A DNA stretch of 64,000 nt from Dehalococcoidia bacterium (lineage in GTDB: Bacteria; Chloroflexota; Dehalococcoidia; Lucifugimonadales; UBA3495). The notes beneath the pieces were generated by a model. The model saw only the letters and a list, made by a program, of their open reading frames with translations, was not told the origin of the DNA and searched no databases. The stretch covers positions 683,711 to 747,710 of the forward strand of contig OZ219748.1 of the NCBI GenBank assembly GCA_964291335.2, in the 5' to 3' direction. Positions 4,852 through 26,822 of the stretch are shown here, piece after piece (the first letter of the stretch is position 1; the number at the start of each line of letters is the position of its first letter). A program made the translations under genes and the position numbers.

Positions 4852-7800
4852 ATGGAACGTGTCAACCGCATTGCCGCGCTGAAATCGTTGCTGAGTCAAC
4901 GAATACTGGTCGTTGACGGGGCCATGGGGACTTTAATCCAGAACAAAAACCTGGGGCCGGAGGACTTCGGCGGCCCGGAGTACGAGGGCTGCAACGAATA
5001 TTTGACCCTTACCCGGCCCGATGTAATTACTGAAATCCACCAGGTTTACCTGGCGGCCGGCGCCGATATTCTGGAAACCAACACCTTCGGCGCTACTTCA
5101 GTAGTGCTGAGCGAGTATGACCTGGCCCACGCAGCGCGGCGCTTAAATCGCACCGCCGCCGAACTGGCCCGGCAGGCAGCCGAGGCCGCCGCTACCCCGG
5201 AACGGCCCCGCTTTGTCGCCGGAGCGATGGGGCCCACCACCAAAACCATCTCGGTTACTGGCGGCATTACCTTCGACGAACTATCCGAAGCTTACCGGGA
5301 GCAGGCCCTAGGCCTGGTTGAAGGCGGAGTTGACCTGCTGCTTCTGGAAACCACCCAGGACACGATTAACCTGAAGGCTGGCCTAATCGGCATTGACCGC
5401 GCCCTGGCGGAACTGGGTATCGACGTGCCGGTGGCAGTGCAGGGCACCATTGAACCTATGGGAACCCTGCTGGCCGGGCAGGATGCTGAAGCCTTTTATA
5501 CTTCGCTGGCCCACCGGGATTTGCTCTGGATTGGCTTTAACTGCGCTACCGGCCCCAACTTTATGACCGACCACATTCGCACCCTGGCCGGGCTGGCTCG
5601 CTTTCCGGTGGCTTGCCTGCCCAACGCCGGCTTGCCGGACGAGGACGGCAATTACAACGAAACGCCGGAGATGATGTCCGACGCCATTGGCCGGTTTGTC
5701 GAATCGGGCTGGCTCAACGTAGTCGGCGGCTGCTGCGGCACCGGGCCGGAGCATATCCGGCAGTTGGCGCAAAGGGCGGTGGGCGCTGCACCGCGAAAGC
5801 CGGTCTGCATCCGGGAAACCCGGGTCTCCGGCATTGAGGCTCTGGTAATTGATGAAGATACCCGGCCGGCTATCATCGGGGAGCGCACCAACGTGCTGGG
5901 CAGCCGCCGCTTCCGCCGGCTGATTGGCCGGGGGGCCTTTGAAGAGGCCGCCGAAATTGGCCGCCGGCAAGTGCGCAACGGCGCCCACGTGCTGGACGTG
6001 TGCCTGCAGGACCCGGACCGGGATGAGCTGGCCGATATTACCCGGTTTCTCGACCTGGTAACCCGCAAGGTCAAATGCCCCATAATGCTCGACTCTACCG
6101 ACGCCTTCGTCATCGAAGAATCGCTGAAAAGGCTGCAAGGCAAATCCATCATCAACTCGGTCAACCTGGAGGACGGGGAGGCCCGGTTCCAGGCGGTGGC
6201 GCCCCTGGCTCGTTCCTATGGGGCCTCCCTAGTGGTGGGTTGTATCGACGACGACCCGGAACAAGCCCAGGCCATTACCCGGGAGCGCAAGCTGGCAATC
6301 GCCCTCCGTTCCCGGAAGCTGCTCACTGAAAAGTACGGCATCCCGGAGGAGGATTTAATCTTTGACTCTTTGGTCTTTCCGGCCGGCACCGGCGATGAAA
6401 ATTACGTCGGCTCTGCCGCTGAAACCATTGAAGGAGTGCGGCTGATTAAGGAAGCGATGCCCAACGCTAAAACGGTCCTGGGCATTTCCAACGTTTCCTT
6501 TGGCCTGCCGGCGGCGGGCCGCGAGGTTTTCAATTCGGTGTTTCTGTACCATTGCGTGCAGGCCGGGCTGGATATGGCGATTGTCAACTCGGAGATGATG
6601 CAGCGGTACGGCTCCATTCCTGAAGCGGAACGCCGCCTTTCCGAGGACTTAATCTGGAACCGGGGCGATGACCCGGTAGCCGCCTTTGCCGCCTACTTTC
6701 GGGATAAAGCGCCCCGGGCCACCAACGAAGAACGGCGAAACCTGCCCCTGGATGAACGCTTGTCCCTGGCCATTATCGAGGGAACCCGGGAAGGGTTGGC
6801 CGAAGACCTGGACATGGCCCTGCGGGAAAGGGCGCCTCTGGAAGTAATCAACGGCCCGTTGATGGCCGGCATGGACGAAGTAGGGCGTCAGTTCAACGCC
6901 AACCAGCTTATCGTGGCCGAGGTGCTTCAGTCGGCGGAAGCGATGAAGTTCGCCGTCGCCCACCTGGAACCCCATATGGAACGGACCGACTCGGCGGCCA
7001 AAGGCAAGGTTATCCTGGCCACCGTCAAGGGCGACGTGCACGACATCGGCAAAAACCTGGTGGACATCATCCTTTCCAACAACGGCTATCAAGTGATTAA
7101 CCTGGGCATTAAGGTGCCGCCCCAGGACCTGATCGCTGCCTGCCGCGAACACCGGCCCGACATCGTGGGGCTCTCCGGCCTGCTGGTCAAGTCGGCCCAG
7201 ATGATGGTGGAAACGGTGCGGGACTTCCGCCAGGCTGGAGTCAACCCGCCCATATTGGTCGGCGGCGCCGCCCTGTCTAACCGGTTCACTCGTTTGCGCA
7301 TTGGCCCGGAGTATGAAGGCCTGGTGGCTTATGCTCAAGACGCCATGAGCGGCCTGGCCCTGGCCAACACCTTGCAGGATGCCGACGAACGGCAGCAGCT
7401 GGCGGCCCGGATTGAGGCCGAGACGGATGAGTTGCTGCGGTCAGCAGCAGAACGGGAACCAACCCAGGCCCAAACTGCCGATGCGGTGGCGCCGGCCCGG
7501 GTTTCCCACGATTTCGCGCCGCCTAACCCGCCGGATTTGCGGCTGCACGTCCTCCGGGACTACGACCTGACGGAAATCTTCCCTTACATCAATCCCCAAA
7601 TGCTGTACGTGCGGCACCTGGGCTACAAAGGCCGCTTTGCCGAGGCTTTGGCGCAAGAGGAGGCCAATGCCCTGGAACTGCGCGCTTCAGTGCGGCGGGT
7701 GGAAGACGTTATGCTGGCCCAGCCCGACATTCAAGCCAATGGGGTATTCAAGTTTTTCCCTTGCCACTCGGAAGGGCAGAACCTGTTGATTTACGGGCCT

Positions 7801-8549: not shown

Positions 8550-8957
8550 ATGGAAGAAGCCAATCAAAAGCGCCGGGACCGGGTAATCCGCAACGTCAGC
8601 CGGACAATCGCCGAGGCGGTCATCCGGGGAACTGACGCGGCGGAAAACGCCACCGAGAGCATCAAAGAAACTATCAGAAGCCGTCCGGGTCCAGAGCGGC
8701 AGACCCGGAACAATGTCGTAATGGTCCGAGTGGATCGGGACAGCCTGGAGCGGATGGACGAACTGGTAGAGGTGGAACTGGCGGGCAGCCGTTCTGAAGC
8801 CGCTGCTCTTCTTATTTCCGCCGGCATTGAGGCCCGAAAGAACCTCTTCGCATCAATATACGCCAAGGTGGCGGAAATAAGAAAGGCTAAAGAGGAACTA
8901 AAGGCCATGCTCAACATTCAAGAGGAAGCCCAGGGGCCACAAGACCCCATCGCTTGA
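8550..8957 (+). CDS. Ribbon-helix-helix (CopG-like) domain protein
   Basis: VVMVRVDRDSLERMDELVEVELAGSRSEAAALLISAGI reads as a beta-strand plus two helices, the RHH pattern. The ATG at 8550 has a GGAG RBS; the ORF track opens at GTG 8541. Confidence 0.55.
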   Translation: MEEANQKRRDRVIRNVSRTIAEAVIRGTDAAENATESIKETIRSRPGPERQTRNNVVMVRVDRDSLERMDELVEVELAGSRSEAAALLISAGIEARKNLFASIYAKVAEIRKAKEELKAMLNIQEEAQGPQDPIA

Positions 8958-9625
8958 GCAGTCCCAATCAGGGTTTGATTTGCGCCAGCCTATCCCATCG
9001 CCAGGATTTACCGTTGATGACTACCTATTTCGAAGACCGGCAGTTTTCCGACAAAATGATGCCCCTGGTTGTTACTGCGCTTCACCACATTGACAATCAG
9101 GCGCTATTCGGCTCCCTGCTTAATGACAGCTACAGCATCAACGCTGCCAGCGAAGAGCAAGACCGGCAATACGCCACCGACCTGGTCTTGCAGCCGCGAA
9201 ACCTCAATATATCCGTGCGGGTGCGCCGTACTCCTGCCGCCGATTATTGGCCTCAATTGACCCTGTCTGATGGCAAAGAGCATTGGGGCATTACCCAGCA
9301 GAACTACGTGGACCTTTATTTCGTGGGCGTCGCCAGCTTTGACGAGACCCGTCTTTCGCATTGGATGGTGGTTAACCTGCAACGGTTCAGAGAGTGCCTG
9401 CGCCAGGATACCAGTATTTTCCCATTAAGAAAGTTCCGCAACCAGCGGGGACAATTCTTCCGGGGTTATACCCTGACCGCCGATATTCCCGGGCTGATAG
9501 TTCAAGCCTTCCCTGCCCTTTCAACAAGAGCAGGGATTTTCATGCCGCCCCGAACAGCGATACCAAAGACGCCCGGTTCCAGGACCGTTGGCGGTGGAAT
9601 CAGGATGCTCACAAGGGCCGGATGA
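8954..9625 (+). CDS. Hypothetical protein (no recognisable motif)
   Basis: 223-aa ORF whose TTG start overlaps the stop of the RHH gene (4-nt overlap). An alternative ATG is at 9017. It ends about 75 nt before the trailer end of the CRISPR array. Confidence 0.4.
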   Translation: MSSPNQGLICASLSHRQDLPLMTTYFEDRQFSDKMMPLVVTALHHIDNQALFGSLLNDSYSINAASEEQDRQYATDLVLQPRNLNISVRVRRTPAADYWPQLTLSDGKEHWGITQQNYVDLYFVGVASFDETRLSHWMVVNLQRFRECLRQDTSIFPLRKFRNQRGQFFRGYTLTADIPGLIVQAFPALSTRAGIFMPPRTAIPKTPGSRTVGGGIRMLTRAG

Positions 9626-9756
9626 TTGCCATTCAGAAGGATCAGCCGAAGGTCTTTATTGATTACCGCCGTGGCTCTCTTCAATACCAAGGTGTCGCCG
9701 GTTTCAATTCTCACCCACCCGAGCCGTTCTGCTGACCGGATGCAGAGGTTGTTCAT

Positions 9757-12700
9757 GTTTCAATCCTCACCCACCCTTTCGGGTGGGTGCTACCACCAGA
9801 TTACCTCCGGCCATGCCCGGACCGATGATGTTTCAATCCTCACCCACCCTTTCGGGTGGGTGCTACCCGTCGTCCCGGGTTATCTGATCTGGGTCAAAAT
9901 TGTTTCAATCCTCACCCACCCGAAAGGGTGGGTGCTACCTGACCCCGGGCCGCTGGCTGACGCAGACCCGGAAGTTTCAATCCTCACCCACCCGAAAGGA
10001 TGGGTGCTACCCCATCAGCTGCAGGAGATAGAGATACAGCAGACGGTTTCAATCCTCACCCACCCGAAAGGGTGGGTGCTACTCTTTAAGACACCAACTA
10101 AGTAACGAGCTTCCAAGGTTTCAATCCTCACCCACCCGAAAGGGTGGGTGCTACCTGGGCAGCGACCTGACCGACCCCGAAGTGGGGCGGTTTCAATCCT
10201 CACCCACCCGAAAGGGTGGGTGCTACCACGCTGTCTGACAGATGTCAACCTCTTGTCGGACGTTTCAATCCTCACCCACCCTTTCGGGTGGGTGCTACCA
10301 TTTTGGGCAGGCGCAAAAGCGCTCCCGGCTGACGGGTTTCAATCCTCACCCACCCTTTCGGGTGGGTGCTACGGTGCAGGGAACCGGAACGGGGGCCGGG
10401 GGTATCAGTTTCAATCCTCACCCACCCGAAAGGGTGGGTGCTACGCCGGGGACTTGCAACAATGGATAACGCCAGCCCTGTTTCAATCCTCACCCACCCG
10501 AAAGGGTGGGTGCTACGTTTGATATTGCCGCATTTGACACAGCTAAGCCCGTTTCAATCCTCACCCACCCGAAAGGGTGGGTGCTACACCCCGGTTATCC
10601 CGCCGCCGGCGTCCTGGCCTGGCCGGTTTCAATCCTCACCCACCCGAAAGGGTGGGTGCTACGCGGGGGTCTTCCAGAGCGTCCGCAGCGTCAATGAGTT
10701 TCAATCCTCACCCACCCGAAAGGGTGGGTGCTACCCGGTAGTCCGCCCATTTGCAGATAGCCGCCCACGTTTCAATCCTCACCCACCCGAAAGGGTGGGT
10801 GCTACTTCCCCCCGGCGGGTTTTGCATTGGCTTTTAGACCGTTTCAATCCTCACCCACCCGAAAGGGTGGGTGCTACCCGACTGGATGAGCGAAATCGGC
10901 GCTGCCGCGATGTTTCAATCCTCACCCACCCTTTCGGGTGGGTGCTACGGCTACCAGTTCCTGGACAAGCCCCAGTTCTTTCAGTTTCAATCCACCCACC
11001 CGAAAGGGTGGGTGCTACTACCCGCAAGGCGTTGTCTGTCAGCTGCCCAAAGTGTTTCAATCCTCACCCACCCGAAAGGGTGGGTGCTACTACCAGGACG
11101 CAGGCGATAAGATTGGCAATCGGGGTTTCAATCCTCACCCACCCTTTCGGGTGGGTGCTACCTTTTCGTATCTGGCGGCTCTTATCACCGCCCAGCGCGT
11201 TTCAATCCTCACCCACCCGAAAGGGTGGGTGCTACCTGCTGGACGAGCGCCACCACGGGGCCATCGCTGTTTCAATCCTCACCCACCCGAAAGGGTGGGT
11301 GCTACTTCGGCGGCCAGGGGGGTAAACCGGGCTTTGCTGCTGTTTCAATCCTCACCCACCCGAAAGGGTGGGTGCTACAGGTGGTATTTGGGCATTGCGC
11401 CGCCGCTTTGGTAGTTTCAATCCTCACCCACCCGAAAGGGTGGGTGCTACAGCTTCAACTCTCCTTCAGCGCAATTAGCATTGATGTTTCAATCCTCACC
11501 CACCCGAAAGGGTGGGTGCTACCTTTGTTGCGTGCCGCCGGCGTGTGGCGTGAGCCGTTTCAATCCTCACCCACCCGAAAGGGTGGGTGCTACAGCCAAC
11601 TCCGCCAACAACGGCGTATAACGCTCCTCGTTTCAATCCTCACCCACCCGAAAGGGTGGGTGCTACGTCTTTGCCAGCGTCTCCCCCACCAAACACATAA
11701 AGTTTCAATCCTCACCCACCCGAAAGGGTGGGTGCTACAGGGGCGGCGGCGGCAATCAGGTTTTCCCCGAAAATGTTTCAATCCTCACCCACCCGAAAGG
11801 GTGGGTGCTACGGGACGCCGACCTGGACGCGCCCCGTTCCACCGGGGTTTCAATCCTCACCCACCCGAAAGGGTGGGTGCTACAGGACGGCGCCCTGCCC
11901 CTTGCCCCAGCGGTAGGCGTTTCAATCCTCACCCACCCGAAAGGGTGGGTGCTACCTAGTGCGTTACGCGGGCCCCCCCGTTAATTACTCAGTTTCAATC
12001 CTCACCCACCCGAAAGGGTGGGTGCTACTTTCAGCAGCAGATTCAGCCGCCGGGCTGGGTCAGGTTTCAATCCTCACCCACCCGAAAGGGTGGGTGCTAC
12101 CCGATGAGACCGCCAATCAGGACTACTCCCAGGAAGTTTCAATCCTCACCCACCCGAAAGGGTGGGTGCTACGGGTTTAAAATCGCCGTCAGGTGTTTTA
12201 CTACCTGTTTCAATCCTCACCCACCCGAAAGGGTGGGTGCTACCCGACACACCTACACCACCTCTATGACTCTTGCTGTTTCAATCCTCACCCACCCTTT
12301 CGGGTGGGTGCTACCTTTTGCGGTTTCCCGTCAACCGACACAATCAGGGTTTCAATCCTCACCCACCCGAAAGGGTGGGTGCTACCCCCGGAAGCCGTAG
12401 CCACGAACAAGCAATTCGTGGTTTCAATCCTCACCCACCCGAAAGGGTGGGTGCTACATCTGAACGAAGTCATATGCACCGGTCAGAGTAAGGTTTCAAT
12501 CCTCACCCACCCGAAAGGGTGGGTGCTACGATGTCCATTGTTACCTTCCCTTCTCAAAATATCGGGTTTCAATCCTCACCCACCCGAAAGGGTGGGTGCT
12601 ACAAAAGTGAATGATAACCTGACTTCCCTCAAAGAGGGTTTCAATCCTCACCCACCCGAAAGGGTGGGTGCTACCCGACACTGCAACCTCAACTCCCGAA

Positions 12701-15700
12701 CAAGGAGGTAGTTTCAATCCTCACCCACCCGAAAGGGTGGGTGCTACATCAATTGCATCTGCCAGCCGGGATTGATACACATCATGTTTCAATCCTCACC
12801 CACCCGAAAGGGTGGGTGCTACCGTCAGCGCAGCGGCGGGTGAAACGCAGCGCCCCAAAGTTTCAATCCTCACCCACCCGAAAGGGTGGGTGCTACGCCG
12901 CCGCATAGCCATTATACCACCGCTACCACATGTTTCAATCCTCACCCACCCGAAAGGGTGGGTGCTACCTGATACAAATCGCTGACAACCTGATACAAAT
13001 CGGGCTGTTTCAATCCTCACCCACCCGAAAGGGTGGGTGCTACCGGCGGTGCCTTGCCCCCCTATCCGACCTGGCGGGTTTCAATCCTCACCCACCCGAA
13101 AGGGTGGGTGCTACGTTCCGGCGGGGTTAGCCTTGGGTGCAACGGCAGCAGTTTCAATCCTCACCCACCCGAAAGGGTGGGTGCTACCCGACGGGGGACG
13201 CCCAGGACGCCGGCGTAGGGTCAGTTTCAATCCTCACCCACCCGAAAGGGTGGGTGCTACACGGCCTGAAGGCGGCAACCCCGCCTTGCTGTAAGGGTTT
13301 CAATCCTCACCCACCCGAAAGGGTGGGTGCTACCGGTGGGGGCCCATCTGGTACTGCGTCCCGTGCGGGTTTCAATCCTCACCCACCCGAAAGGGTGGGT
13401 GCTACGCCGGATGGTAGCGTTGCAAACGCTGTAAGGGCAAATGTTTCAATCCTCACCCACCCGAAAGGGTGGGTGCTACTCGGCGGCTGACTCGTCAATG
13501 CAGTCGCAAACGCCGTTTCAATCCTCACCCACCCGAAAGGGTGGGTGCTACTTTTGCCTATTGACAAAATCGGTATATATCCCTAGTTTCAATCCTCACC
13601 CACCCGAAAGGGTGGGTGCTACCGACAGAAGGGCGGGCGGCTACGGAGACGACAGGATGTTTCAATCCTCACCCACCCGAAAGGGTGGGTGCTACACCGT
13701 CAAAAGGTCGGGGCCCAATCTCTCGTAACATAGTTTCAATCCTCACCCACCCGAAAGGGTGGGTGCTACTGTAGCTACCGAGACGTCCCAGACGGGCACT
13801 GGGGGGGTTTCAATCCTCACCCACCCGAAAGGGTGGGTGCTACACTCCAGGGAAAGATTGTGCAGGTCAGGTGATTGTTTCAATCCTCACCCACCCGAAA
13901 GGGTGGGTGCTACCTGACTATTAGAAACGCGACCAGCGTGTTCTAGATGTTTCAATCCTCACCCACCCGAAAGGGTGGGTGCTACCGCCGGCGCCGTTCC
14001 CGGCAGGCGTCGCAAAGGGAGTTTCAATCCTCACCCACCCGAAAGGGTGGGTGCTACCTGGCAAACCCTGGGCCATCCGCCAAAGCTCCGGCGGGTTTCA
14101 ATCCTCACCCACCCGAAAGGGTGGGTGCTACTCCTCGGCCTGGAGCGGGGTAATCCCCCGCCCCTGCCAGTTTCAATCCTCACCCACCCGAAAGGGTGGG
14201 TGCTACTCCAGGGCGGCTGGTAGGGCTCGGCCAGGGCTACCAAGTTTCAATCCTCACCCACCCGAAAGGGTGGGTGCTACAAAATGAGGTGGCACGGCGG
14301 GTGAGAGAGGATGAAGTTTCAATCCTCACCCACCCGAAAGGGTGGGTGCTACGCCACGAATTCCTGTATCCGGGCAAGCTCTTTGAGGTTTCAATCCTCA
14401 CCCACCCGAAAGGGTGGGTGCTACTCCCCCGCCCCTGCCAGAAAGCCAGAAGGCCTGCGGTTTCAATCCTCACCCACCCGAAAGGGTGGGTGCTACCGCC
14501 CCGGGGCCACCCACAGAGCAATCGCCCGCCGTTTCAATCCTCACCCACCCGAAAGGGTGGGTGCTACCCTACCCTTTGTTAGGTTAGGGGCAGGCCCCTA
14601 ACGGTTTCAATCCTCACCCACCCGAAAGGGTGGGTGCTACGGCGTCCCGGCCGCGCTGGGCCGTCTGGTACGCCTGTTTCAATCCTCACCCACCCGAAAG
14701 GGTGGGTGCTACGCCGCTGCCGCCGCCCTATACGGGCGAAACACGGTTTCAATCCTCACCCACCCGAAAGGGTGGGTGCTACGCGAGTGACGCGCCGGGA
14801 GGCCCAACCTGGCTGGGGTTTCAATCCTCACCCACCCGAAAGGGTGGGTGCTACTACGAGGCAAAGTACGCAAAAATGATGGACGGAGCGTTTCAATCCT
14901 CACCCACCCGAAAGGGTGGGTGCTACCGCCGAGGCAGCCCGCCCCCCCACGCCGATTTTGGTGTTTCAATCCTCACCCACCCGAAAGGGTGGGTGCTACT
15001 ATCCTTTCAGCGTCTCCGGGCCACCCCTGTAAGGGTTTCAATCCTCACCCACCCGAAAGGGTGGGTGCTACTTTCGGTCCTCGTCGATTTTATCGTGGCG
15101 ATACGGAGTTTCAATCCTCACCCACCCGAAAGGGTGGGTGCTACGGCCTTGCCGAAGTTACCGGGCCACCGGGCCTTGCCGTTTCAATCCTCACCCACCC
15201 GAAAGGGTGGGTGCTACAACAAGGGCCGCATTTTGCATTGCATTATGTAAACTGTTTCAATCCTCACCCACCCGAAAGGGTGGGTGCTACCTTACATATA
15301 TAATCTGATTGTGTACCTTAAAAGTTGTTTCAATCCTCACCCACCCGAAAGGGTGGGTGCTACCCGGTAACTCGGTGGCCCGGTAACTTCGCCTTATAGC
15401 TGTTTCAATCCTCACCCACCCGAAAGGGTGGGTGCTACACAAATGGCTGGTGGGCTGGCTGACGGCCAACCGGGTTTCAATCCTCACCCACCCGAAAGGG
15501 TGGGTGCTACGAAAGGCTATCGGCGGATGATTTGGGGCATATGGGGTTTCAATCCTCACCCACCCGAAAGGGTGGGTGCTACCTTCCTGCCGTCCGGCTT
15601 CTCCGGCTCCGGCTCGTGGTTTCAATCCTCACCCACCCGAAAGGGTGGGTGCTACTTCTATTGTTTCCGGGTTTTGCCACATAAAGAAAGAGTTTCAATC

Positions 15701-17916
15701 CTCACCCACCCGAAAGGGTGGGTGCTACAGCGCCCTGACAACGGCCGCTGGCTGGGGTGCAGGGTTTCAATCCTCACCCACCCGAAAGGGTGGGTGCTAC
15801 ATTTTGGGCAACCACAAAACGCCCCCGGCTGACCGGTTTCAATCCTCACCCACCCGAAAGGGTGGGTGCTACCCCTGCCGCCGTGGCTTTATCCGGGACG
15901 ACGTGGTAGTTTCAATCCTCACCCACCCGAAAGGGTGGGTGCTACGATGAGCGCCGGCGCGATTTGAGGGGTGGATTGATGGTTTCAATCCTCACCCACC
16001 CGAAAGGGTGGGTGCTACCCGGCTGGCAGCGTTATATCCTCGTTCTCCAGACGGGTTTCAATCCTCACCCACCCTTTCGGGTGGGTGCTACGCCCTGCTG
16101 TACGCTACAGGGTACGCAACCTGTACGGTTTCAATCCTCACCCACCCGAAAGGGTGGGTGCTACATACGCCGCAAGCAGCGCCGGTTAAGCCGTTGCAAG
16201 GTTTCAATCCTCACCCACCCGAAAGGGTGGGTGCTACGCGCAGGTTCGCCCGGCGCTGCCGGTAGTCCTGTAGTTTCAATCCTCACCCACCCGAAAGGGT
16301 GGGTGCTACCGCTCCGGAGGTAGGGGGCGGCGGCGGCAACCAGGGTTTCAATCCTCACCCACCCGAAAGGGTGGGTGCTACGCGGCTATCTGCAAATGGT
16401 CGGACTACCGGGCGGAGTTTCAATCCTCACCCACCCGAAAGGGTGGGTGCTACCGCCCGTAGGCTGCATGATGCTTGGCGGGCGCAGGATGTTTCAATCC
16501 TCACCCACCCGAAAGGGTGGGTGCTACTTGTGCTTTTGCGCCGAGCGGTGATACCAGGGCAGGTTTCAATCCTCACCCACCCGAAAGGGTGGGTGCTACA
16601 ACCTCGGCGACATTTTCGTTGTCGTCCATATCAGGGTTTCAATCCTCACCCACCCGAAAGGGTGGGTGCTACCGTGGCGTGGGCGTGGCCAGTAGCTAAA
16701 ATGACCCAGTTTCAATCCTCACCCACCCGAAAGGGTGGGTGCTACTCTCTGCCCAGAGGTGATAATGTTTGTAGGGAGATGTTTCAATCCTCACCCACCC
16801 GAAAGGGTGGGTGCTACCTCGGTGGCGTGGGCGTGGCGGTACACGCCGGGTTGTTTCAATCCTCACCCACCCGAAAGGGTGGGTGCTACAAGTCGCTTCT
16901 TGAGAGTTACTCTCAATGTAGGCCGGTTTCAATCCTCACCCACCCGAAAGGGTGGGTGCTACCTGCCCGGAAACCGGCGTAGCCGACTGGACAACCCGGG
17001 TTTCAATCCTCACCCACCCTTTCGGGTGGGTGCTACACGGATAACAACATTGTGATTAACAGCGATGATGAGTTTCAATCCTCACCCACCCGAAAGGGTG
17101 GGTGCTACGCCCGGGTTTTGGCTTCCCCGTGCCAGGGCAGGCGTGTTTCAATCCTCACCCACCCGAAAGGGTGGGTGCTACGCCGGTCTGGTAGGCCTCC
17201 TCGGCGGCGTCGTCGAGGTTTCAATCCTCACCCACCCGAAAGGGTGGGTGCTACCGAGCCCGGCTGGACTGTCCAGCACGGCGTACCCGTGTTTCAATCC
17301 TCACCCACCCGAAAGGGTGGGTGCTACCGGCGTTGCAGGCCGCAAAGTGTGCGTCTGCACGGCTGTTTCAATCCTCACCCACCCGAAAGGGTGGGTGCTA
17401 CCTCGGCCTGGGCCCGGCGCCATGCGGATGCGCCGACATGTTTCAATCCTCACCCACCCGAAAGGGTGGGTGCTACGGCACCCCGCTACCCGCTAGCCCC
17501 CCCCGGCCCCGGTTTCAATCCTCACCCACCCGAAAGGGTGGGTGCTACGACCGGCTGCCCCGACTGCGCCGCCGACCCCAGCACTGTTTCAATCCTCACC
17601 CACCCGAAAGGGTGGGTGCTACGCCTGCACGCCGCCGCACGCCCGCCCAGGCCCCCTGGTTTCAATCCTCACCCACCCGAAAGGGTGGGTGCTACTGGAG
17701 ACGGCACTCGACCACCTCTAGGCCCCCCCCCCGGTTTCAATCCTCACCCACCCGAAAGGGTGGGTGCTACGTCCCCAGACGGGCAGAAGAAGACTGTCCG
17801 AGTGATGTTTCAATCCTCACCCACCCGAAAGGGTGGGTGCTACCTCCAGAGAACGTGCCACCCCACGCTATCCCACCGGGTTTCAATCCTCACCCACCCG
17901 AAAGGGTGGGTGCTAC
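9757..17916 (-). repeat. Trailer-side block of 113 repeats: 104 with plus-strand loop GAAA (UUUC in crRNA), 9 with TTTC
   Basis: TTTC-type repeats start at 9757, 9830, 10262, 10336, 10912, 11125, 12278, 16055 and 17000. All other repeats in this block carry GAAA on the plus strand. Confidence 0.9.
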
Positions 17917-17951
17917 TCGAGCGCCTGGTCCACATGCGACTGGGCGGCCTC

Positions 17952-20900
17952 GTTTCAATCCTCACCCACCCTTTCGGGTGGGTGCTACTACCTTCCCGGC
18001 TTCCCGGCCTTTTGCGCGTGGCCGGGTTTCAATCCTCACCCACCCTTTCGGGTGGGTGCTACCTTGAGTAGTATCAGCAGTGGCAAGGCATAAAACGGTT
18101 TCAATCCTCACCCACCCTTTCGGGTGGGTGCTACCTCCAGGGCAGGGAGTGCTAATCCCTGCCCTGTTAGTTTCAATCCTCACCCACCCTTTCGGGTGGG
18201 TGCTACTTGGCTTCAGTCATTGAAGCCGTAACCGCTTCGCTGTTTCAATCCTCACCCACCCTTTCGGGTGGGTGCTACCTTTGGTTGGGTAACCCTACTA
18301 CGAAGCCGGAAACGGTTTCAATCCTCACCCACCCTTTCGGGTGGGTGCTACGCTTTGGCTTCCGCAAATGCGGAAGTTGCTTCCCTGGTTTCAATCCTCA
18401 CCCACCCTTTCGGGTGGGTGCTACCACGCCCACGCCGGGCAGTCGGTACAGGTACACCGTTTCAATCCTCACCCACCCTTTCGGGTGGGTGCTACCTACC
18501 AAACGGACGCTTTATTTTGCATAGCATTATGTGTTTCAATCCTCACCCACCCTTTCGGGTGGGTGCTACCCACCAAAGCGTCTGACGCGGTGGCCAGAGC
18601 AGCTCAAGTTTCAATCCTCACCCACCCTTTCGGGTGGGTGCTACAACTCCGTGCCTCAATGTAACAGCTTTTCCACTGGTGTTTCAATCCTCACCCACCC
18701 TTTCGGGTGGGTGCTACACATAGTCAGGTATTTTATATCCTAGTTGTTTAGTAGTTTCAATCCTCACCCACCCTTTCGGGTGGGTGCTACTGACGCCGCC
18801 CCCGGCATGTTCCGTGACCTGCTAGTTTCAATCCTCACCCACCCTTTCGGGTGGGTGCTACCGGGCAGCCAGGGCAACCCCTGGAGTGGCTGCTGTCGTT
18901 TCAATCCTCACCCACCCTTTCGGGTGGGTGCTACGGCCGCCGTTTCCCCGTCGTAGCAATTAAAGCTGCAGTTTCAATCCTCACCCACCCTTTCGGGTGG
19001 GTGCTACGCTTTGCCATTGCTCCAGCCTACCCCACCGCTGGCGGTTTCAATCCTCACCCACCCTTTCGGGTGGGTGCTACCCTCGGCCGGCATCCGGATG
19101 CCGGCCCAGCCCCCGAGTTTCAATCCTCACCCACCCTTTCGGGTGGGTGCTACCGGCTGACGCCCACCGGTTCCGCTTGCGCAAAATATGGTTTCAATCC
19201 TCACCCACCCTTTCGGGTGGGTGCTACCCGGGTAGTGCGCCGGGTTGCCGCTCTGGGGCCGGATGTTTCAATCCTCACCCACCCTTTCGGGTGGGTGCTA
19301 CGAGCCGCTGCCGGGGCAGCCGCCCCGCGCCGACAGGTTTCAATCCTCACCCACCCTTTCGGGTGGGTGCTACTGTAGGCAATATACAGATTTTGTCAAC
19401 AGGTAAAAGTTTCAATCCTCACCCACCCTTTCGGGTGGGTGCTACCCCAGCCCGACCAGATACACCCCCAGCATTTTCAGGTTTCAATCCTCACCCACCC
19501 TTTCGGGTGGGTGCTACTGGCAATCCGAAGGAAATATACGCAAAACCCAGCAGGTTTCAATCCTCACCCACCCTTTCGGGTGGGTGCTACGGGGCCGTTC
19601 CGGTCGGGAAACCGGGTTTCCGGGCGTTTCAATCCTCACCCACCCTTTCGGGTGGGTGCTACCCCCCAGGACGGCCAAACGGCTTACGGAGAGGCAAGTT
19701 TCAATCCTCACCCACCCTTTCGGGTGGGTGCTACAATCACTCCGCCGGCAATGTTGCCCAAGCTCAAACTGTTTCAATCCTCACCCACCCTTTCGGGTGG
19801 GTGCTACCCGGGTGTCCGGCGGCAAGGGTTCCTGGCAATTCCGGTTTCAATCCTCACCCACCCTTTCGGGTGGGTGCTACGTCAGGCTCTATGGTCTCCT
19901 CGGTCACGTACGGGCTGTTTCAATCCTCACCCACCCTTTCGGGTGGGTGCTACCTCTGCCCGCAGGATGCGATCCAGCCATTCCAGCGGGGTTTCAATCC
20001 TCACCCACCCTTTCGGGTGGGTGCTACGGCCGGCGCCGGCGTCCAGGTCAGCCGATTACGCTGTTTCAATCCTCACCCACCCTTTCGGGTGGGTGCTACA
20101 TTTTTATCCGCAGCGGCCCGTCCTGGTATTCACTAGTTTCAATCCTCACCCACCCTTTCGGGTGGGTGCTACACCGGGGCTTGCGCTGGAGGTGCACGGG
20201 CCAGCACACGTTTCAATCCTCACCCACCCTTTCGGGTGGGTGCTACCGCCGGACGCCTAACCGTAGGAGGATGAGGATTATGGTTTCAATCCTCACCCAC
20301 CCTTTCGGGTGGGTGCTACCTGGGCGCCGCATAGCCATTGTACCACTGCTACCACATGTTTCAATCCTCACCCACCCTTTCGGGTGGGTGCTACCGGCGG
20401 CGGAGTATCGGCGGGCGGCCACCCAAACGAGGGTTTCAATCCTCACCCACCCTTTCGGGTGGGTGCTACCGGCGTGGCGGTAGGTATAACCGGCAGGAGA
20501 ACGTGGTTTCAATCCTCACCCACCCTTTCGGGTGGGTGCTACCATTGCCCCACTAGGCGGCAGCACCCCGGCCCCCGGTTTCAATCCTCACCCACCCTTT
20601 CGGGTGGGTGCTACCGGTTTCGCCCGCGGTTATAATGGCGCAGTAGAAAGGTTTCAATCCTCACCCACCCTTTCGGGTGGGTGCTACCCTTTGACCTTAC
20701 AGCCCATTTTGAGGCTATGCAGGTTTCAATCCTCACCCACCCTTTCGGGTGGGTGCTACGTCCCGTCTGCCCACCCTGACTTTTCAGCATAAGGTTTCAA
20801 TCCTCACCCACCCTTTCGGGTGGGTGCTACCATTTGCGGGGTTAGCCTTGGGTGCAGCGGCAGCAGTTTCAATCCTCACCCACCCTTTCGGGTGGGTGCT

Positions 20901-23580
20901 ACGCCCTGTTCTCTGGATTGCGCTGACGGGCTGCCGGTTTCAATCCTCACCCACCCTTTCGGGTGGGTGCTACCTGCCAGTAGCCGGGTTCGCCGGCGCC
21001 GGCGCAGCGGTTTCAATCCTCACCCACCCTTTCGGGTGGGTGCTACGGCAAGGGCGCCGACAGAAAAACGCTCGACGCCCTGTTTCAATCCTCACCCACC
21101 CTTTCGGGTGGGTGCTACACTACTACGACCCCCTGACGCCGGCCCAGATTGGGGTTTCAATCCTCACCCACCCTTTCGGGTGGGTGCTACCGCCGCTGCC
21201 TCGGTCGGTATATCCCCGGCCAGCCGTTTCAATCCTCACCCACCCTTTCGGGTGGGTGCTACAAGCGCCCTGCGTCAACCGCTGCGGCGCGTGGGTGGGT
21301 TTCAATCCTCACCCACCCTTTCGGGTGGGTGCTACGGCTCTGGCTGGGAGCCAACCACACCCCTAGCCCGGTTTCAATCCTCACCCACCCTTTCGGGTGG
21401 GTGCTACCGGCTACCAGTTCCTGGACGGTCGCCAGTTCTTTGAGGTTTCAATCCTCACCCACCCTTTCGGGTGGGTGCTACCCCACGCCCCGGTGCAGTA
21501 TTTCGCCCTGGACGATGTTTCAATCCTCACCCACCCTTTCGGGTGGGTGCTACCCGTCAGCTGCCGAACCCGGCCAAAGGAACCGGGGGTTTCAATCCTC
21601 ACCCACCCTTTCGGGTGGGTGCTACGTCCATCCCCTCGCCGGCTATCTCACCCACCCAGCTGTTTCAATCCTCACCCACCCTTTCGGGTGGGTGCTACAG
21701 CTACGCTTCCTAGGGTGCGAAGGTACGCAACGCTGTTTCAATCCTCACCCACCCTTTCGGGTGGGTGCTACGGCTGACTATCTAACCGACCTGACGCAAG
21801 TCAGTCTGTTTCAATCCTCACCCACCCTTTCGGGTGGGTGCTACAGCCGGAAGCCGGGAAGGTACGGAAGCGAAGCCGGGTTTCAATCCTCACCCACCCT
21901 TTCGGGTGGGTGCTACCGGCTTCCGGCCTTGCGTACCTTCGCACGCGCAAAGTTTCAATCCTCACCCACCCTTTCGGGTGGGTGCTACCCGTTCCTGGTC
22001 CGTTACGGTTACCGAGTAGTCCCCGTTTCAATCCTCACCCACCCTTTCGGGTGGGTGCTACCTTGGTTGCTGTCGGCATGGCCGTTTACAGCGGAGGGTT
22101 TCAATCCTCACCCACCCTTTCGGGTGGGTGCTACCCAGGATACCCCACTACTCGTTTGTCTTTATTGATGTTTCAATCCTCACCCACCCTTTCGGGTGGG
22201 TGCTACTAGTATCCGGGCCGTAGCCAACCAATACCGGGGGCTGTTTCAATCCTCACCCACCCTTTCGGGTGGGTGCTACTACCGGCATTGTTTCCCCGCG
22301 CTGCCGATGAGGTTGTTTCAATCCTCACCCACCCTTTCGGGTGGGTGCTACGTGGACGCCGAAGACCTGACGGCGCCGGAGATACTGTTTCAATCCTCAC
22401 CCACCCTTTCGGGTGGGTGCTACTTGCTAGGGTTTGATACATTCCTGCGGTGCGTCAGGGTTTCAATCCTCACCCACCCTTTCGGGTGGGTGCTACCAGG
22501 TCATACCAATGCTGCGTTTCAGACTGCCAGGGTTTCAATCCTCACCCACCCTTTCGGGTGGGTGCTACCGCAGGGACCTTTGCCATAGGTGCCGGTCTCA
22601 GCTGTTTCAATCCTCACCCACCCTTTCGGGTGGGTGCTACGCGATATAATCATCCCACCCCTTTTGCTCCCCGCCGGTTTCAATCCTCACCCACCCTTTC
22701 GGGTGGGTGCTACAGGGGAAAATTGCGCCATTCGTTCCAGGCCAGAACGTTTCAATCCTCACCCACCCTTTCGGGTGGGTGCTACTATGCCTTTCAGGAT
22801 ACGGGCGGCGTCCCGGTAGGGGTTTCAATCCTCACCCACCCTTTCGGGTGGGTGCTACCCTCCTTACCTGCGGAATCTGTTCCGGTCATTGGAAGTTTCA
22901 ATCCTCACCCACCCTTTCGGGTGGGTGCTACGGTTGTTTTGACTGCCCAAAATGCGCAAATTTGAGTTTCAATCCTCACCCACCCTTTCGGGTGGGTGCT
23001 ACTCCGGCTTCCGGCCTTGCGTACCTTCGCACGCGCAAAGTTTCAATCCTCACCCACCCTTTCGGGTGGGTGCTACTCGATAATCCCGTCCAATATAATG
23101 CCGACGGCTTCGTTTCAATCCTCACCCACCCTTTCGGGTGGGTGCTACGTGTCCTCAAACTGCAAGGTAGCTCGGTGTCTCCCGTTTCAATCCTCACCCA
23201 CCCTTTCGGGTGGGTGCTACCAGCCCGCTATGGAGATACTGGAGCGGGCCAGAGGTTTCAATCCTCACCCACCCTTTCGGGTGGGTGCTACGGGTGTGGG
23301 GAGCCTGCTTGCGGCAGTTGCGCGTGTTTCAATCCTCACCCACCCTTTCGGGTGGGTGCTACCCCAGGTCCCCCAGCGCAACATCTTCACCCAGCAGGTT
23401 TCAATCCTCACCCACCCTTTCGGGTGGGTGCTACCAAGGTGCAGCAGTATCTGCTGTCGGTGGACGCCGGGTTTCAATCCTCACCCACCCTTTCGGGTGG
23501 GTGCTACCCGCAAAAGTGCGCCAGGCCTTCCGGGGGCTGAAGAGTTTCAATCCTCACCCACCCTTTCGGGTGGGTGCTAC
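17952..23580 (-). repeat. Leader-side block of 78 consecutive repeats, all with plus-strand loop TTTC (GAAA tetraloop in crRNA)
   Basis: Every repeat from 17952 to 23580 reads ...cacccaccctttcgggtgggtg.... The plus-frame repeat peptides change uniformly from PKGWV/TRKGGCY/PERVGAT to PFGWV/TLSGGCY/PFRVGAT. Confidence 0.9.
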
Positions 23581-23732
23581 TGTCATTCGGAGATTTTCTA
23601 TTTGAACATCGCGAACCTCCTCTTTTCCCTCTCTGTGAATGATGAAAATCACGCTTTCGTCGCGTCCACTGAGTACGCTGCAAGTATAAACGCGAACCTC
23701 CTGTTTGCAGCGTCAATCGCAACCGGTTCGCG
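23581..23732 (-). promoter_or_regulatory. CRISPR leader
   Basis: 152-bp non-coding, relatively AT-rich segment between the cas2 stop (23733) and the first intact repeat (23580). It contains the motif cgcgaacctcct twice (23610-23621, 23691-23702) and an inverted partial copy ggttcgcg (23725-23732). Confidence 0.7.
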
Positions 23733-24089
23733 TCACGCGAGCAGCGGACCGCTGAAGTCAATCACGTTGCTTATTCCATATTCCTCGACTCGGTGTTCAC
23801 GTCCGCCGGGAATCTTGTAAAACCGGATGCTGTCTTCATTCTCGTCTATGATGCCAAGTAGCCTGGCCTTCATTTCAAGGAAATTTGTGTCGCTGACCGT
23901 GCATTCAAAAACCGACTTTTGGACCCGCTGACCGTAGTCTTCACAGGTCTTTGCCACCCGCCGCAGACGTGAACGCCCGGCCGCGGTTTCAGTGCTGACA
24001 TCATAAGTAACCAGAATCCACACTATGTTCACCGCTATATATAATATCGAGGTGTGCGTGTGTGAGACCAGAATCCACCCTATGTTCAC
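23733..24089 (-). CDS. cas2: CRISPR-associated endoribonuclease Cas2
   Basis: Cas2 core WILVTYDVSTE...RLRRVAKTCEDYGQRVQKSVFEC...IRFY. Two in-frame GTG starts (24089, overlapping the cas1 stop, and 24032) lie in the two copies of a 25-bp duplication. The shorter form (23733-24032) is probably the functional one. Confidence 0.9.
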   Translation of the reverse strand: MNIGWILVSHTHTSILYIAVNIVWILVTYDVSTETAAGRSRLRRVAKTCEDYGQRVQKSVFECTVSDTNFLEMKARLLGIIDENEDSIRFYKIPGGREHRVEEYGISNVIDFSGPLLA

Positions 24090-24091
24090 CG
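24010..24091. repeat. 25-bp direct duplication of the cas1-stop/cas2-start junction flanking a 32-bp insert (period 57 bp)
   Basis: accagaatccac[a/c]ctatgttcaccg occurs at 24010-24034 and 24067-24091 (24/25 identical). The intervening ctatatataatatcgaggtgtgcgtgtgtgag (24035-24066) has a composition unlike its surroundings. Confidence 0.85.
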
Positions 24092-25120
24092 GGCCACAAA
24101 GGCAGGATAGTGCTCCAGGTCTCCTCGCAAATGGCGTGCCAGTAATCGGGCCTGAAGGTGGGGCAAGAGCCCCACCGGTGTCTTCTGCTGCGCCAACGGA
24201 TGCGTTATCTCCTCTGCCTTTCGCTTCTGATAGGTTACCAGCAGCGTTTTCCTGCCTTCCTCAGTTAGAGAAACTCCACCGCCCAGGCTGCTTGCGAAGT
24301 GCGCTGCGGTCAGCTGTCGCCGGTTAATCAGCGTCAACGCCAGACGGTCAGCCAGGAACGAGCGAAACTCTTCCATCAGATCAAGGGCCAATGATGGACG
24401 ACCAGGTCGGACCGCGTGAAGAAAACCAATTTGAGGGTCCAAACCGACGCCCTCACAGGCGGCCTGGCATTCTGCCCGGACCAGCGCGTAGAGGAAAGAT
24501 AACATGGCGTTAATCGGGTCCCGCGGCGGTCGCCGATTTCTGCCGTCGAAGCTGAAGGCCGAGTCCGGTGAACGTATCAAATGGTTGAAAACTGAGAAGT
24601 AAACCGCGCCGGCACGTCCCTCGTTGCCACGAATTTCGTTCAGGTCACCGGTTTTTTTAAGATCCATAATGGTATCTGCCATGGACTTTGCGGCAAGCCG
24701 TAAATCAGCTTCCGCTTCGGGTTCCCGCGTCTGACGCGCTTCTCGCATCAGGAGTAAGCGCCCGTTCTGCACCTTGGCAGCTACGATGTTTCGGGCAATG
24801 GCGGCAGAGCGCTCGTGGTCCCGATAGGCCTCGTGCTGCGCCAGCCGCAACAGCACATTCCCCGAGGTCGGGCCTACCACTTTTGCTCGAAATCTACCGC
24901 TGCGGCTGAGAAAGACCAGGTCACGCTGGTCTTCAGCGCATTGCGCCATGGCGGCCGGAGATACGCTTACCCTGCCGAAGCAGACCACTGCCCCCAAATG
25001 GTGCACCGGGACCTGCAGGATTGTCCCTCCGTCCGCTTCAACTTTGAGGGTGCGGTGATCAACATGTACGTAGGCCCCTTGCGTGGTAACGTACAGGGTG
25101 TTGAGTAATTCGCGGGCCAC
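24086..25120 (-). CDS. cas1: CRISPR-associated endonuclease Cas1, type I-C
   Basis: 344-aa ORF: N-terminal LLNTLYVTTQGAYV...TLKV beta-domain, then an alpha-helical catalytic domain (GNEGRAGAVYF, RRPPRDPINAMLSFLYALV, GFLH, SLALDLMEEFR). Confidence 0.95.
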   Translation of the reverse strand: MARELLNTLYVTTQGAYVHVDHRTLKVEADGGTILQVPVHHLGAVVCFGRVSVSPAAMAQCAEDQRDLVFLSRSGRFRAKVVGPTSGNVLLRLAQHEAYRDHERSAAIARNIVAAKVQNGRLLLMREARQTREPEAEADLRLAAKSMADTIMDLKKTGDLNEIRGNEGRAGAVYFSVFNHLIRSPDSAFSFDGRNRRPPRDPINAMLSFLYALVRAECQAACEGVGLDPQIGFLHAVRPGRPSLALDLMEEFRSFLADRLALTLINRRQLTAAHFASSLGGGVSLTEEGRKTLLVTYQKRKAEEITHPLAQQKTPVGLLPHLQARLLARHLRGDLEHYPAFVAR

Positions 25121-25151
25121 AACGTTTTCCTCAATCGGTTGCGGACGTCAT

Positions 25152-25823
25152 TCAATCCGACTTCGACATGGACTGCCGGACGGGTTTGTTTGTCCCGACG
25201 ACAAACAACTGAGTCTGGTACTGCCGGTTCCTGTCCTGTTTTGACACCACGAACGGCAGGCAGGATTCTACCAGCGAACAGTTGCGGCATCGGGCGTCGG
25301 CCACCGCCGGCGGCAGTACGGGTTCGCTCATCAGCTGCCGGATTGCCGATACTGCCTTTTTCATTTGCTCACGCAATGCGGTTGTGAATTCTACCTCCCG
25401 TCGTTGACGGGAGGAAAAGTGATAGACGGCGCCCACCGGGACTTCCGTGGCGAGCATTTCTTCAAGGCAAACCGCCTGGCCGCAAAGCTGAAGATCGGCG
25501 TGGCGGCCCTGGCGTGCTGGACCATGCTTGTATTCGACGGGGTATGGCGTAACGCCGTGGAATTCTACCAGGTCGGCTTTGCCCAGCAGCCCCAGCGATT
25601 CGGACCACAGCGGCACAGCGTATTCGGTGCGCACGCCGTCGACGGTAGCAACGCCGGATTGATCCACCCGCTCGTGCACTGCGTTGCCGCGGAGGGTGTA
25701 CACGTTCTCATCATAGGTCTGCTCCCGGTGAATCAGGGCGCATTGCCGCGGGCAGTAGCTGTAGTGTTCCAGCATGGACAGCAGCACATAGTCTTCAAAT
25801 TCTGAAATCAGCGGTTCCATCAT
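25152..25823 (-). CDS. cas4: CRISPR-associated exonuclease Cas4 (RecB-like, Fe-S)
   Basis: YSYCPRQCAL N-terminal Cys, DLVEF...PVEYK nuclease core, and C-terminal CRNCSLVESC cysteine cluster. Confidence 0.93.
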   Translation of the reverse strand: MMEPLISEFEDYVLLSMLEHYSYCPRQCALIHREQTYDENVYTLRGNAVHERVDQSGVATVDGVRTEYAVPLWSESLGLLGKADLVEFHGVTPYPVEYKHGPARQGRHADLQLCGQAVCLEEMLATEVPVGAVYHFSSRQRREVEFTTALREQMKKAVSAIRQLMSEPVLPPAVADARCRNCSLVESCLPFVVSKQDRNRQYQTQLFVVGTNKPVRQSMSKSD

Positions 25824-25923
25824 TGCCTCCAGCCTGACCCTGTGCTAACCCTCTCCTACATTATAGGTATCTGTTCCCTCATCATGGTTCCATCATTGCC
25901 TCCAGCCTGACCCTATGCTAACC
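25813..25923. repeat. 38-bp direct duplication of the cas7-stop/cas4-start junction flanking a 35-bp insert (period 73 bp)
   Basis: ggttccatcattgcctccagcctgaccct[g/a]tgctaacc occurs at 25813-25850 and 25886-25923 (37/38 identical). The insert is ctctcctacattataggtatctgttccctcatcat (25851-25885). Copy 25813-25850 carries the real cas4 RBS and ATGATG start. Confidence 0.9.
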
Positions 25924-25925
25924 GG

Positions 25926-26822
25926 TCAGGCGTCGAGCCTGGCAATGCTGACGCCCGTGGGCAAATCGGTTTCGTCCAGCGTCACCGAATAATCCGCGAA
26001 ACGGCGTGGCACGGTCGCATTACCTTTCTGCTTTACTTCCAGCCTTTCGAATAACCGGTGGGCCGGGGCGTTGCCCAACCGGCTTTCGTGGGAGAACACG
26101 TACAAACCCCGGCAGGCCATCATGCCCCTGGCTGATGAGCGGTCTAGGTCCCACATGTTGACCAGAGCTTCCCAGAACAGTTCCAAATCTGCTGCGTTGG
26201 CGCCGGTGTGCCGGGCAAAGTGGGGGTTGAAAAACCCGTAACCCCGGTAAAGGCCGTAGGGCACAGTGGACTTGCGCCCCAGCGTGCCGTGGGTGGGAGC
26301 CTCGTTTTCGTCTTCCTCGTTTTCGGCCCTGCGTTCACCGCGGTTTTCCAACGCAACCCTGGCTATGGTCGAATCCATCGCCAGAATTGGATCGACCGAA
26401 CGGGAGAAGGTCAGTTGCACTGGGCCGCGTACTTGCCCGGCGTTACGCTCCCGCATACTCATCACGGCGCCGAACATTCGAATATCGTAAAACTGCTCGC
26501 ACAACCATGGTTGCGCCTGCCGCGGCGTGGGGTCGTCGTTCTCGTCGCGTCTTTCCGCAAAGACACGGCCCCGGGTTTCGGTGAGGTAGGTGTCGCGCTG
26601 GACGTAAATCTTGTACCGGGATTCATCCCCTCGGGCAGCATCTACATAGTCCCTGACCTTGCGTTTGAGGGACACATCGGTGACAATGCCCTGCATGGTT
26701 TCGGGGTCCATCCGTGGCTGATTGCCGGCGTCCGGGTCTCCGTTGGGGTTGCCATCCTGCACATCAAACAGGATGATGAAATCCTGCCGTCGGTCAACGT
26801 CGTTGTAGGGTTGGGTGGTCAT
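25926..26822 (-). CDS. cas7: Cascade backbone subunit Cas7 (Csd2), type I-C
   Basis: FDVQDGNPNGDPDAGNQPRMDPETMQGIVTDVSLKRKVRDYV is the characteristic Csd2/Cas7c N-terminal signature. 298 aa. Confidence 0.93.
   Translation of the reverse strand: MTTQPYNDVDRRQDFIILFDVQDGNPNGDPDAGNQPRMDPETMQGIVTDVSLKRKVRDYVDAARGDESRYKIYVQRDTYLTETRGRVFAERRDENDDPTPRQAQPWLCEQFYDIRMFGAVMSMRERNAGQVRGPVQLTFSRSVDPILAMDSTIARVALENRGERRAENEEDENEAPTHGTLGRKSTVPYGLYRGYGFFNPHFARHTGANAADLELFWEALVNMWDLDRSSARGMMACRGLYVFSHESRLGNAPAHRLFERLEVKQKGNATVPRRFADYSVTLDETDLPTGVSIARLDA

Follow-up and report, generated by a model that had tools for sequence, protein, structure and literature searches.

A stretch of 64,000 nucleotides (nt) from a Dehalococcoidia bacterium (assembly GCA_964291335.2, contig OZ219748.1, positions 683,711 to 747,710; the whole stretch is called the window throughout) contains a CRISPR array of 191 repeats, the hairpin loop of which occurs in two forms that are inversions of one another. 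The array belongs to a locus with the gene order cas3-cas5c-cas8c-cas7-cas4-cas1-cas2, leader, array, and a profile search revealed that the genes are contiguous on the minus strand (23733-31583). They comprise cas3 with HD nuclease and helicase (29397-31583; TIGR01587, TIGR01596), cas5c (cas5d), which encodes the endonuclease for the CRISPR RNA (crRNA) precursor of type I-C systems (28550-29212; TIGR01876), cas8c/csd1 (26847-28553; TIGR01863), cas7/csd2 (25926-26822; TIGR02589), cas4 (25152-25823; TIGR00372), a type I-C cas1 (24086-25120; TIGR03640, 495.6 bits at a cut-off of 385) and cas2 (23733-24089; TIGR01573). The signature genes cas8c (csd1), cas7 (csd2) and cas5c are thus present, and there is no cas6 in the locus. 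The matches to TIGR01863, TIGR02589, TIGR01876 and TIGR03640 all exceeded the curated cut-offs and bear out the type I-C assignment that had been made in an initial annotation. As in other type I-C loci, the array adjoins cas2 and the repeat forms a hairpin that is followed by an 11-nt tail. This CRISPR-Cas locus of an uncultured Dehalococcoidia bacterium is a canonical representative of type I-C, it is complete and, as far as its sequence allows to judge, it is apparently active. The nearest genome matches were Dehalococcoidia metagenome-assembled genomes (MAGs), with 98% identity for Cas1 and 92.6-94.7% identity for the cas genes at the DNA level.

Relatives of the locus were obtained via Cas1, and their arrays were extracted from the fetched loci, which are designated by numbers with the prefix L. 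Between cas2 and the first repeat lies a leader of 152 base pairs (bp; 23581-23732, minus strand), the repeat-adjacent motif GGAGGTTCGCG.TGTTCAAATAGAAAATCTCCGAAT of which is conserved in L001 and L009. A promoter scan of the leader yielded nothing on the minus strand. The position of cas2 and the strand of the Rfam match (see below) agree with the earlier proposal of a leader at the high-coordinate end and of crRNAs that are derived from the minus strand.

The array (9757-23580, minus strand) was delineated by a script scan of the whole window, which detected 190 full repeats of 37 nt and one copy of 35 nt; no further repeat copy and no second array were found in the 64 kb on either strand. 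On the plus strand the repeat reads GTTTCAATCCTCACCCACCC-(GAAA or TTTC)-GGGTGGGTGCTAC, which corresponds to GTAGCACCCACCC-(GAAA or UUUC)-GGGTGGGTGAGGATTGAAAC in the crRNA sense. The spacing is perfectly regular, with spacers of 33-38 nt. Beyond the oldest full repeat the array ends with a degenerate terminal repeat (9701-9737), which retains the 3′ arm and the handle only (GGGTGGGTGAGAATTGAAAC) and is the same in L001. Two damaged repeats that had been noticed earlier were both found, namely one with a G-to-A change in the stem (GGGTGGGTG to GGATGGGTG on the plus strand; 9974-10010) and the 35-nt copy without TC (AG in the crRNA sense, directly 3′ of the hairpin; 10984-11018). The array had also been called very long for type I-C; it is long but not exceptional, since four other surveyed type I-C arrays contain 110-131 or more repeats, counts that are lower bounds as they were made inside the 10-kb flank fetched per locus. 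Spacer 27 from the leader (21626-21661, starting with AGCTGGGTGGGTGAGATAGCC in the crRNA sense) contains 11 nt that equal the 3′ stem arm of the repeat plus the next two bases (GGGTGGGTGAG); this may be a chance similarity or a spacer captured from a CRISPR array.

The centre of the repeat is a 22-bp palindrome with 9-bp arms that is interrupted solely by the asymmetric 4-nt loop. The hairpin occupies positions 5-26 of the repeat, and AGGATTGAAAC (11 nt) comes after it. An identical hairpin was predicted by folding for both forms, with -19.8 and -18.9 kcal/mol, the GAAA loop being better by 0.9 kcal/mol. Both forms also match the Rfam family CRISPR-DR9 (RF01322) on the minus strand, with 50.6 and 49.9 bits at a gathering score of 45.

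On the plus strand 104 of the 191 repeats carry the loop GAAA and 87 the loop TTTC, and no third form was detected in the script scan. Repeats with TTTC start at 9757, 9830, 10262, 10336, 10912, 11125, 12278, 16055 and 17000, and all 78 repeats with starts from 17952 to 23544 are of this form. These counts and positions reproduced exactly what had been counted by hand in the initial annotation, including the uniform leader-proximal block. The two loops differ at four positions simultaneously and intermediates do not exist; as they are exact reverse complements, and as only two loops were found in the recount, the difference is a true inversion, as had been claimed. The distribution of the two forms along the array is far from random: there are only 15 runs versus 95.7 expected (z = -11.8), and the clustering thus goes far beyond chance. 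In the crRNA sense, the newest 78 repeats (17952-23580) all contain GAAA and the older repeats mostly UUUC. The older block of 111 repeats (9902-17916) consists of 104 repeats with UUUC and seven flipped repeats, which are an adjacent pair (10262-10372, comprising 10262-10298 and 10336-10372) and five singletons (10912-10948, 11125-11161, 12278-12314, 16055-16091 and 17000-17036). The two oldest full repeats (9757-9866) have GAAA again.

The polarity of these changes could be read from a sister strain. Look-ups with the exact proteins Cas1, Cas2 and a trailer-side open reading frame (ORF) each returned a single other contig, ERZ24894574:ctg6022l (L001/L006), the Cas1, Cas2 and trailer-side proteins of which are identical to those of the window. 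Its trailer flank is 99.58% identical to that of the window, and the identity is lower on the cas side (98.39%). The cas3-cas5 intergenic region (29248-29428, 180 bp) holds 55 of the 107 cas-side differences, and the surrounding genes differ by less than 1%; this region may be a replaced or a fast-evolving promoter region. The L001 array has 18 repeats, all with GAAA in the crRNA sense. What it has in common with the window is limited to the degenerate terminal repeat and the two oldest spacers; none of its 16 other spacers occurs in the window. Because L001 shares the spacers at 9757 and 9830 and carries GAAA throughout, this loop is, on the basis of this comparison, the ancestral one. The trailer pair therefore is not the product of a flip, as had been assumed, but retains the ancestral form. 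The chance probability of adjacency of the flipped repeats at 10262 and 10336 is p = 0.33, and the pair may represent either a short heritable excursion or two independent flips. With the trailer pair ancestral and possibly independent flips at 10262 and 10336, only two of the at least four heritable flips that had been postulated are required.

New CRISPR repeats are copies of the leader-proximal repeat, and therefore a flip in this repeat is passed on to all later repeats and results in a block. An internal repeat that flips would remain a singleton, and the number of such singletons would grow with age. We regard it as highly probable that the pattern is due to neutral inversions of the hairpin loop, of which the leader-proximal ones were inherited as blocks and the internal ones remained singletons. 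The history of the array in the crRNA sense would then have begun with the ancestral GAAA (2 repeats), and a leader-proximal flip to UUUC would have been followed by about 111 acquisitions. Seven of these repeats would have reverted in place, or a short heritable excursion might account for two of them. A flip back to GAAA at 17952 would have been followed by 78 acquisitions. At least two leader-proximal flips are thus needed for the lineage of the window, as read from the loop states.

The loop, and sometimes also part of the stem, would occasionally be inverted when a DNA polymerase changes from one of the two complementary strands to the other across the arms. Judged from the shape of the product only, such a strand switch is the most likely cause. 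Template-switch inversions of loops have been documented in ribosomal RNA (rRNA) hairpins (PMC8794818), and loop inversions have been described for plastid hairpins (PMC2903610).

The arrays of the relatives were analyzed for comparable changes, and an exact loop inversion was seen in at least six other arrays. They include both arrays of L009, the first with GCAA/TTGC interleaved across about 17 repeats and the second with TCCC/GGGA, L010 (= L013) with two GAAA among 28 TTTC, L016 with CAGG/CCTG in one flipped repeat (its degenerate terminal repeat has CCTG too), L018 with the 6-nt loop CACCGT/ACGGTG, the Accumulibacter MAG L034 with GCAA/TTGC, and the sister strains L095-L098 with CGTA/TACG. 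A further case, TTCG/CGAA in L007, is probable, but here it is the degenerate terminal repeat that carries the flip, and the case was excluded from the count. In the second array of L009 the last repeat moves a stem mismatch onto the other arm, i.e., CATCCAGTC-GGGA-GGCTGGATG results when a CATCCAGCC-TCCC-GACTGGATG precursor is inverted, and therefore the inverted segment extends into the stem. Such a stem transfer is absent in the window. The signature of the inversions thus is an exact reverse complement with conserved length and with bounds within perfect inverted arms, occasionally with transfer of a stem mismatch. Across the arrays the flips go in both directions. The "inversions" in L017, L025, L056 and L061 that had come up in a first automatic screen were in fact single G/C or A/T transversions and were discarded.

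L009, the relative with the most interleaved loop forms, also contains two pairs of insertion sequence-type transposase genes (DUF4096 and DDE_Tnp_1; 5119-5903 and 14989-15877), one of which interrupts the cas operon between cas3 and cas5, the other being located downstream of the array, and genes resembling a cyclic oligonucleotide-based antiphage signaling system (CBASS; SMODS, patatin) are nearby.

Inheritance from the leader-proximal repeat, which had been proposed to explain the block structure, was in line with the results for several relatives. L096 and L098, which stem from two different samples, have spacers and the boundary between an older TACG block and a newer CGTA block in common, and their loop states agree at the orthologous repeats. 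In L097 and L098 the leader-proximal repeat is freshly flipped and also has a new stem mutation. The only discordant orthologous repeat among the sister strains is in L097, a contig with 3x coverage and garbled spacers, and it was not relied on. Blocks that differ by point mutations were also found, with 29 and then 31 repeats in L024 and with 18 and then 17 repeats in L055, and they demonstrate that repeats are generally inherited from the leader end. The L024 blocks (11507-15446) differ by GCGCGAATTG versus GCGTGAATTG, and those of L055 (11480-13986) by GAAG versus AAAC in the loop region.

The occurrence of flips was associated with the type of hairpin. They were found in 6 of 14 lineages with a perfect stem of at least 9 bp and an asymmetric loop, in contrast to only 1 of 34 lineages in which the stem is imperfect or shorter (Fisher p = 0.0014). 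L091-L094 and L100-L105, which have imperfect stems, contain no flips. The exact repeat of the window gave 0 matches in the GTDB species genomes, and an exact-repeat scan of metagenomes returned three contigs only, L002-L004 (Joint Genome Institute), which have the stem and the flanks of the window repeat and the palindromic loops TTAA/TGCA; a flip would therefore be invisible in these arrays. The spacers of L004 are AT-rich, which suggests a different host or target pool.

A hidden-state model, which assumes a constant acquisition rate, was fitted to the sequence of loop states in the window to characterize the origin of the flips. With in-place, age-dependent flips only (1 parameter) the log-likelihood was -39.96 at a rate of 5.9e-4 per repeat per acquisition step. 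A model with acquisition errors only (2 parameters; 0.011 for the proximal and 0.038 for the distal copy) gave a worse fit (-41.39) and was rejected as an explanation of the singletons. The derived flips lean to the old end of the array (p = 0.063), and none is present in the newest 78 repeats (Fisher p = 0.043). Taken together with the model fits, the singletons are thus best read as in-place flips that accumulated with age. They had been ascribed to flips either in the leader-distal daughter repeat or in situ; the slightly better fit favors the latter. When a separate rate for the leader-proximal repeat was added to in-place flipping, the log-likelihood was -38.03, with 0.0085 for the proximal repeat versus 0.00047 for internal repeats per acquisition step, and the difference to the in-place-only model was barely significant (likelihood ratio test, p = 0.049).

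This bears on the proposal that flipping is coupled to spacer integration. The gap-filling polymerase would switch strands in the hairpin-prone, single-stranded leader-proximal gaps that flank a new spacer, and the singletons would be errors in the distal daughter repeat. In the initial annotation the gap intermediates had been suggested as the source of the flips, and the support that this obtained was marginal: the fitted leader-proximal rate in the window is 18 times the internal one, at the p value just given, and L096 exhibits the same trend (p = 0.07). The flipped leader-proximal repeats of L097 and L098 with their new stem mutation point in the same direction, as does a survey of 11,384 arrays in which the leader-proximal repeats of type I-C were more mutated than the internal ones (6.65 versus 4.12 per 1000 nt; PMC12839519). 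However, the pure acquisition model fits worse in spite of its additional parameter, the derived flips lean to the old end and spare the newest 78 repeats, L010, L016 and L034 have internal singletons only, and the rate test presumes constant acquisition. Coupling to integration as formulated here is therefore rather doubtful, and that the flips are mainly a by-product of spacer integration is at best a tentative idea. If it were true, arrays with long perfect stems and asymmetric loops would be built-in recorders of the fidelity of repeat duplication, and the relatives with the palindromic loops TTAA and TGCA would conceal the same process.

The spacers of the two blocks were compared with regard to functional consequences of the loop form. 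They are alike in length (35.6 versus 35.5 nt), GC content (61.5% versus 61.7%) and end-base composition, and in two cases (spacers 38/144 and 45/147) protospacers were re-acquired across the blocks with the same 5′ end. Therefore, adaptation ran equally under either loop. Altogether, in four pairs of spacers, counted from the leader (8/23, 38/144, 45/147 and 99/177), an identical or almost identical protospacer was acquired more than once; the pairs have 1-2 mismatches, a shared 5′ end and a variable 3′ end, the members of 99/177 being on opposite strands; they suggest repeated sampling of one evolving target. Both forms yield the same hairpin and the same 11-nt 5′ handle, which is what Cas5c leaves (PMC8524198). 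According to PMC8524198, which cites Nam 2012, cleavage by BhaCas5c is not inhibited by mutations of the loop, and the stem base and the downstream bases matter. This biochemistry and the equal spacer length and GC content agree with the earlier assumption that Cas5c tolerates either loop. Judged from the published work on other Cas5c enzymes, neither processing by Cas5c nor the function of Cascade is probably affected by the dimorphism, and the results suggest that the loop sequence is irrelevant to a type I-C system.

A dimorphism in which the loops were selected for different roles might nevertheless be envisaged, e.g., with a GNRA tetraloop that affects crRNA stability, Cascade loading or the binding of another factor. 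GAAA is such a GNRA tetraloop, it folds better by the above 0.9 kcal/mol, and it is present in the newest 78 repeats as well as in all repeats of L001. However, the close relatives mostly have UUUC (L010, L011 and L012), palindromic loops (L002-L004) or unrelated loops, and flips occurred in both directions, and therefore selection is very unlikely; the equal spacer properties of the blocks and the indifference of Cas5c cleavage to loop mutations in the tested enzyme also argue against it. A sequencing or assembly artefact at the palindromic hairpin would be conceivable for a metagenome assembly, and palindromes are known trouble spots for some chemistries. This is extremely improbable, because only two loop states exist that are exact reverse complements, they form long blocks instead of scattered noise, this class of change recurs in independent assemblies of diverse types, namely several long-read ones as well as a TARA scaffold and a SPAdes NODE contig, and the orthologous repeats of L096 and L098 have identical loop states in spite of their different samples. 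A programmed invertible switch operated by a site-specific invertase encoded next to the array was rejected; the inverted segment has only 4 nt, and the neighbors of the array are cas2 on one side and two unassigned ORFs and metH on the other, in a screen that covered only some of the ORFs farther away.

Alternatively, the array could be a chimera, in which a block of 78 repeats of the GAAA form was grafted onto an array of the UUUC form by homologous recombination between strains with alternative loop forms or by assembly joining, and the leader-proximal repeat would then not have flipped at this point. With L001 there is a strain of the same species in which all repeats carry GAAA, the divergence from this strain is larger on the cas side than in the trailer flank, and irregular arrays occur in some metaMDBG-style contigs from related samples (L100, L097 and L103). 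These three are low-coverage long-read contigs in which units are duplicated and spacers (7-48 nt) are garbled or cut short (11485-13115 in L100), and their arrays need care. In contrast, the window array is perfectly regular. The 16 unshared spacers of L001 are absent from it, and no spacer of the block was found in any fetched locus. Half of the excess divergence on the cas side is due to the 180-bp patch at 29248-29428, and the remainder amounts to 0.8% versus 0.42%. The spacers of both blocks have the same length and GC content and re-sampled the same protospacers, and a block pattern is common to sister strains from different samples in another lineage (L096/L098). Furthermore, recombination would create neither the singletons nor the original dimorphism. 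A chimera is thus improbable.

Several observations weigh against neutral loop inversion by strand switching as the explanation for the pattern. Recombination between the short inverted repeats or gene conversion between repeats leaves an identical product. The window is a metagenome-assembled contig, and the loop states were read from the assembly alone. Five long arrays are free of flips, namely L079 (131 repeats), L037 (110 repeats), L064 (92 repeats) and L071 (127 repeats), of which the latter two are from Planctomycetes and have perfect 9-bp stems, and also that of the closest relative L011 (115 repeats), which has a mismatch in the closing pair. The lack of flips in L064, L071 and L011 indicates that the flip rate is not explained by stem length alone. 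In addition, no protospacers were found in IMG/VR, where two re-acquired spacers and the repeat were searched with 0 matches, and we infer the activity of both forms.

The surroundings of the locus contain further features. Between metH and the array trailer (8550-9625, plus strand) are two ORFs of 135 and 202 amino acids (aa) without Pfam or NCBIfam match, of which the one with 202 aa recurs unchanged in the sister strain. An ORF of 320 aa without Pfam match (33726-34688) contains 7.9 copies of a tandem repeat (34300-34465), the period of which is 21 nt, with a super-period of 42 nt and 92% matches. A few kb from the CRISPR-cas locus there is a likely defence island on the minus strand (36736-54386), which encodes an Eco57I-like N6 methylase of 1244 aa, two PLD-nuclease/SNF2-helicase fusions of 1078 and 942 aa, a DUF1156 methyltransferase of 1038 aa and a DUF499 protein of 987 aa.

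The CRISPR system is an ordinary one and the class of mutation is known, but variation of CRISPR repeats by loop inversion appears to be undescribed. No description was found in the full-text literature, a search that leaves the absence unproven since most subscription journals were outside of it, and the words inversion, loop, hairpin and reverse complement are absent from the survey published in 2026 on mutations in the repeats of 11,384 arrays (PMC12839519). Hairpin-loop inversions are usually seen singly on a phylogeny, and here 191 ordered copies are present in one locus, with more in the relatives, which directly reveal in what order and direction the flips occurred, whether they are reversible and how their rates compare (as fitted, about 5e-4 for internal and about 8e-3 for leader-proximal repeats per acquisition step). 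The array represents a natural loop experiment, in which one loop was in place for more than 100 successive acquisitions and the other for the next 78, and spacer uptake was visibly unaffected. The pattern offers a way to test the fidelity of repeat duplication during adaptation, and the loop state is a free lineage marker for the tracing of arrays. Software for repeat clustering, orientation calling or conservation scoring would treat the two forms as four mismatches.

In comparison with known systems, the locus shares with type I-C (Dvulg, CRISPR-DR9) the gene order, the absence of cas6, the spacers of 33-38 nt and a GC-rich repeat hairpin with an 11-nt tail that ends with ATTGAAAC. It differs from the type I-C model systems in the presence of two loop forms in near-equal numbers, and its repeat is longer (37 instead of 32 nt) and has a tetraloop on a 9-bp stem where they have a pentaloop on a 7-bp stem (PMC8524198). 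Ordinary polymorphism of CRISPR repeats (PMC12839519) likewise leads to blocks that start where the leader-proximal repeat changed and to a degenerate terminal repeat, but it consists of substitutions and insertions or deletions instead of a 4-nt inversion. The inversions in rRNA and microRNA hairpins (PMC8794818) and in chloroplast trnH-psbA and other plastid hairpins (PMC2903610) are the same exact reverse complements of a short loop between perfect arms, and they are also recurrent, reversible (homoplastic) and able to carry stem mismatches across. In contrast to these cases, a dedicated integrase pathway duplicates the CRISPR hairpin as well and might be a second source of flips, and one CRISPR locus provides up to 191 ordered and time-stamped copies, from which the direction, order and heritability of the inversions can be read.

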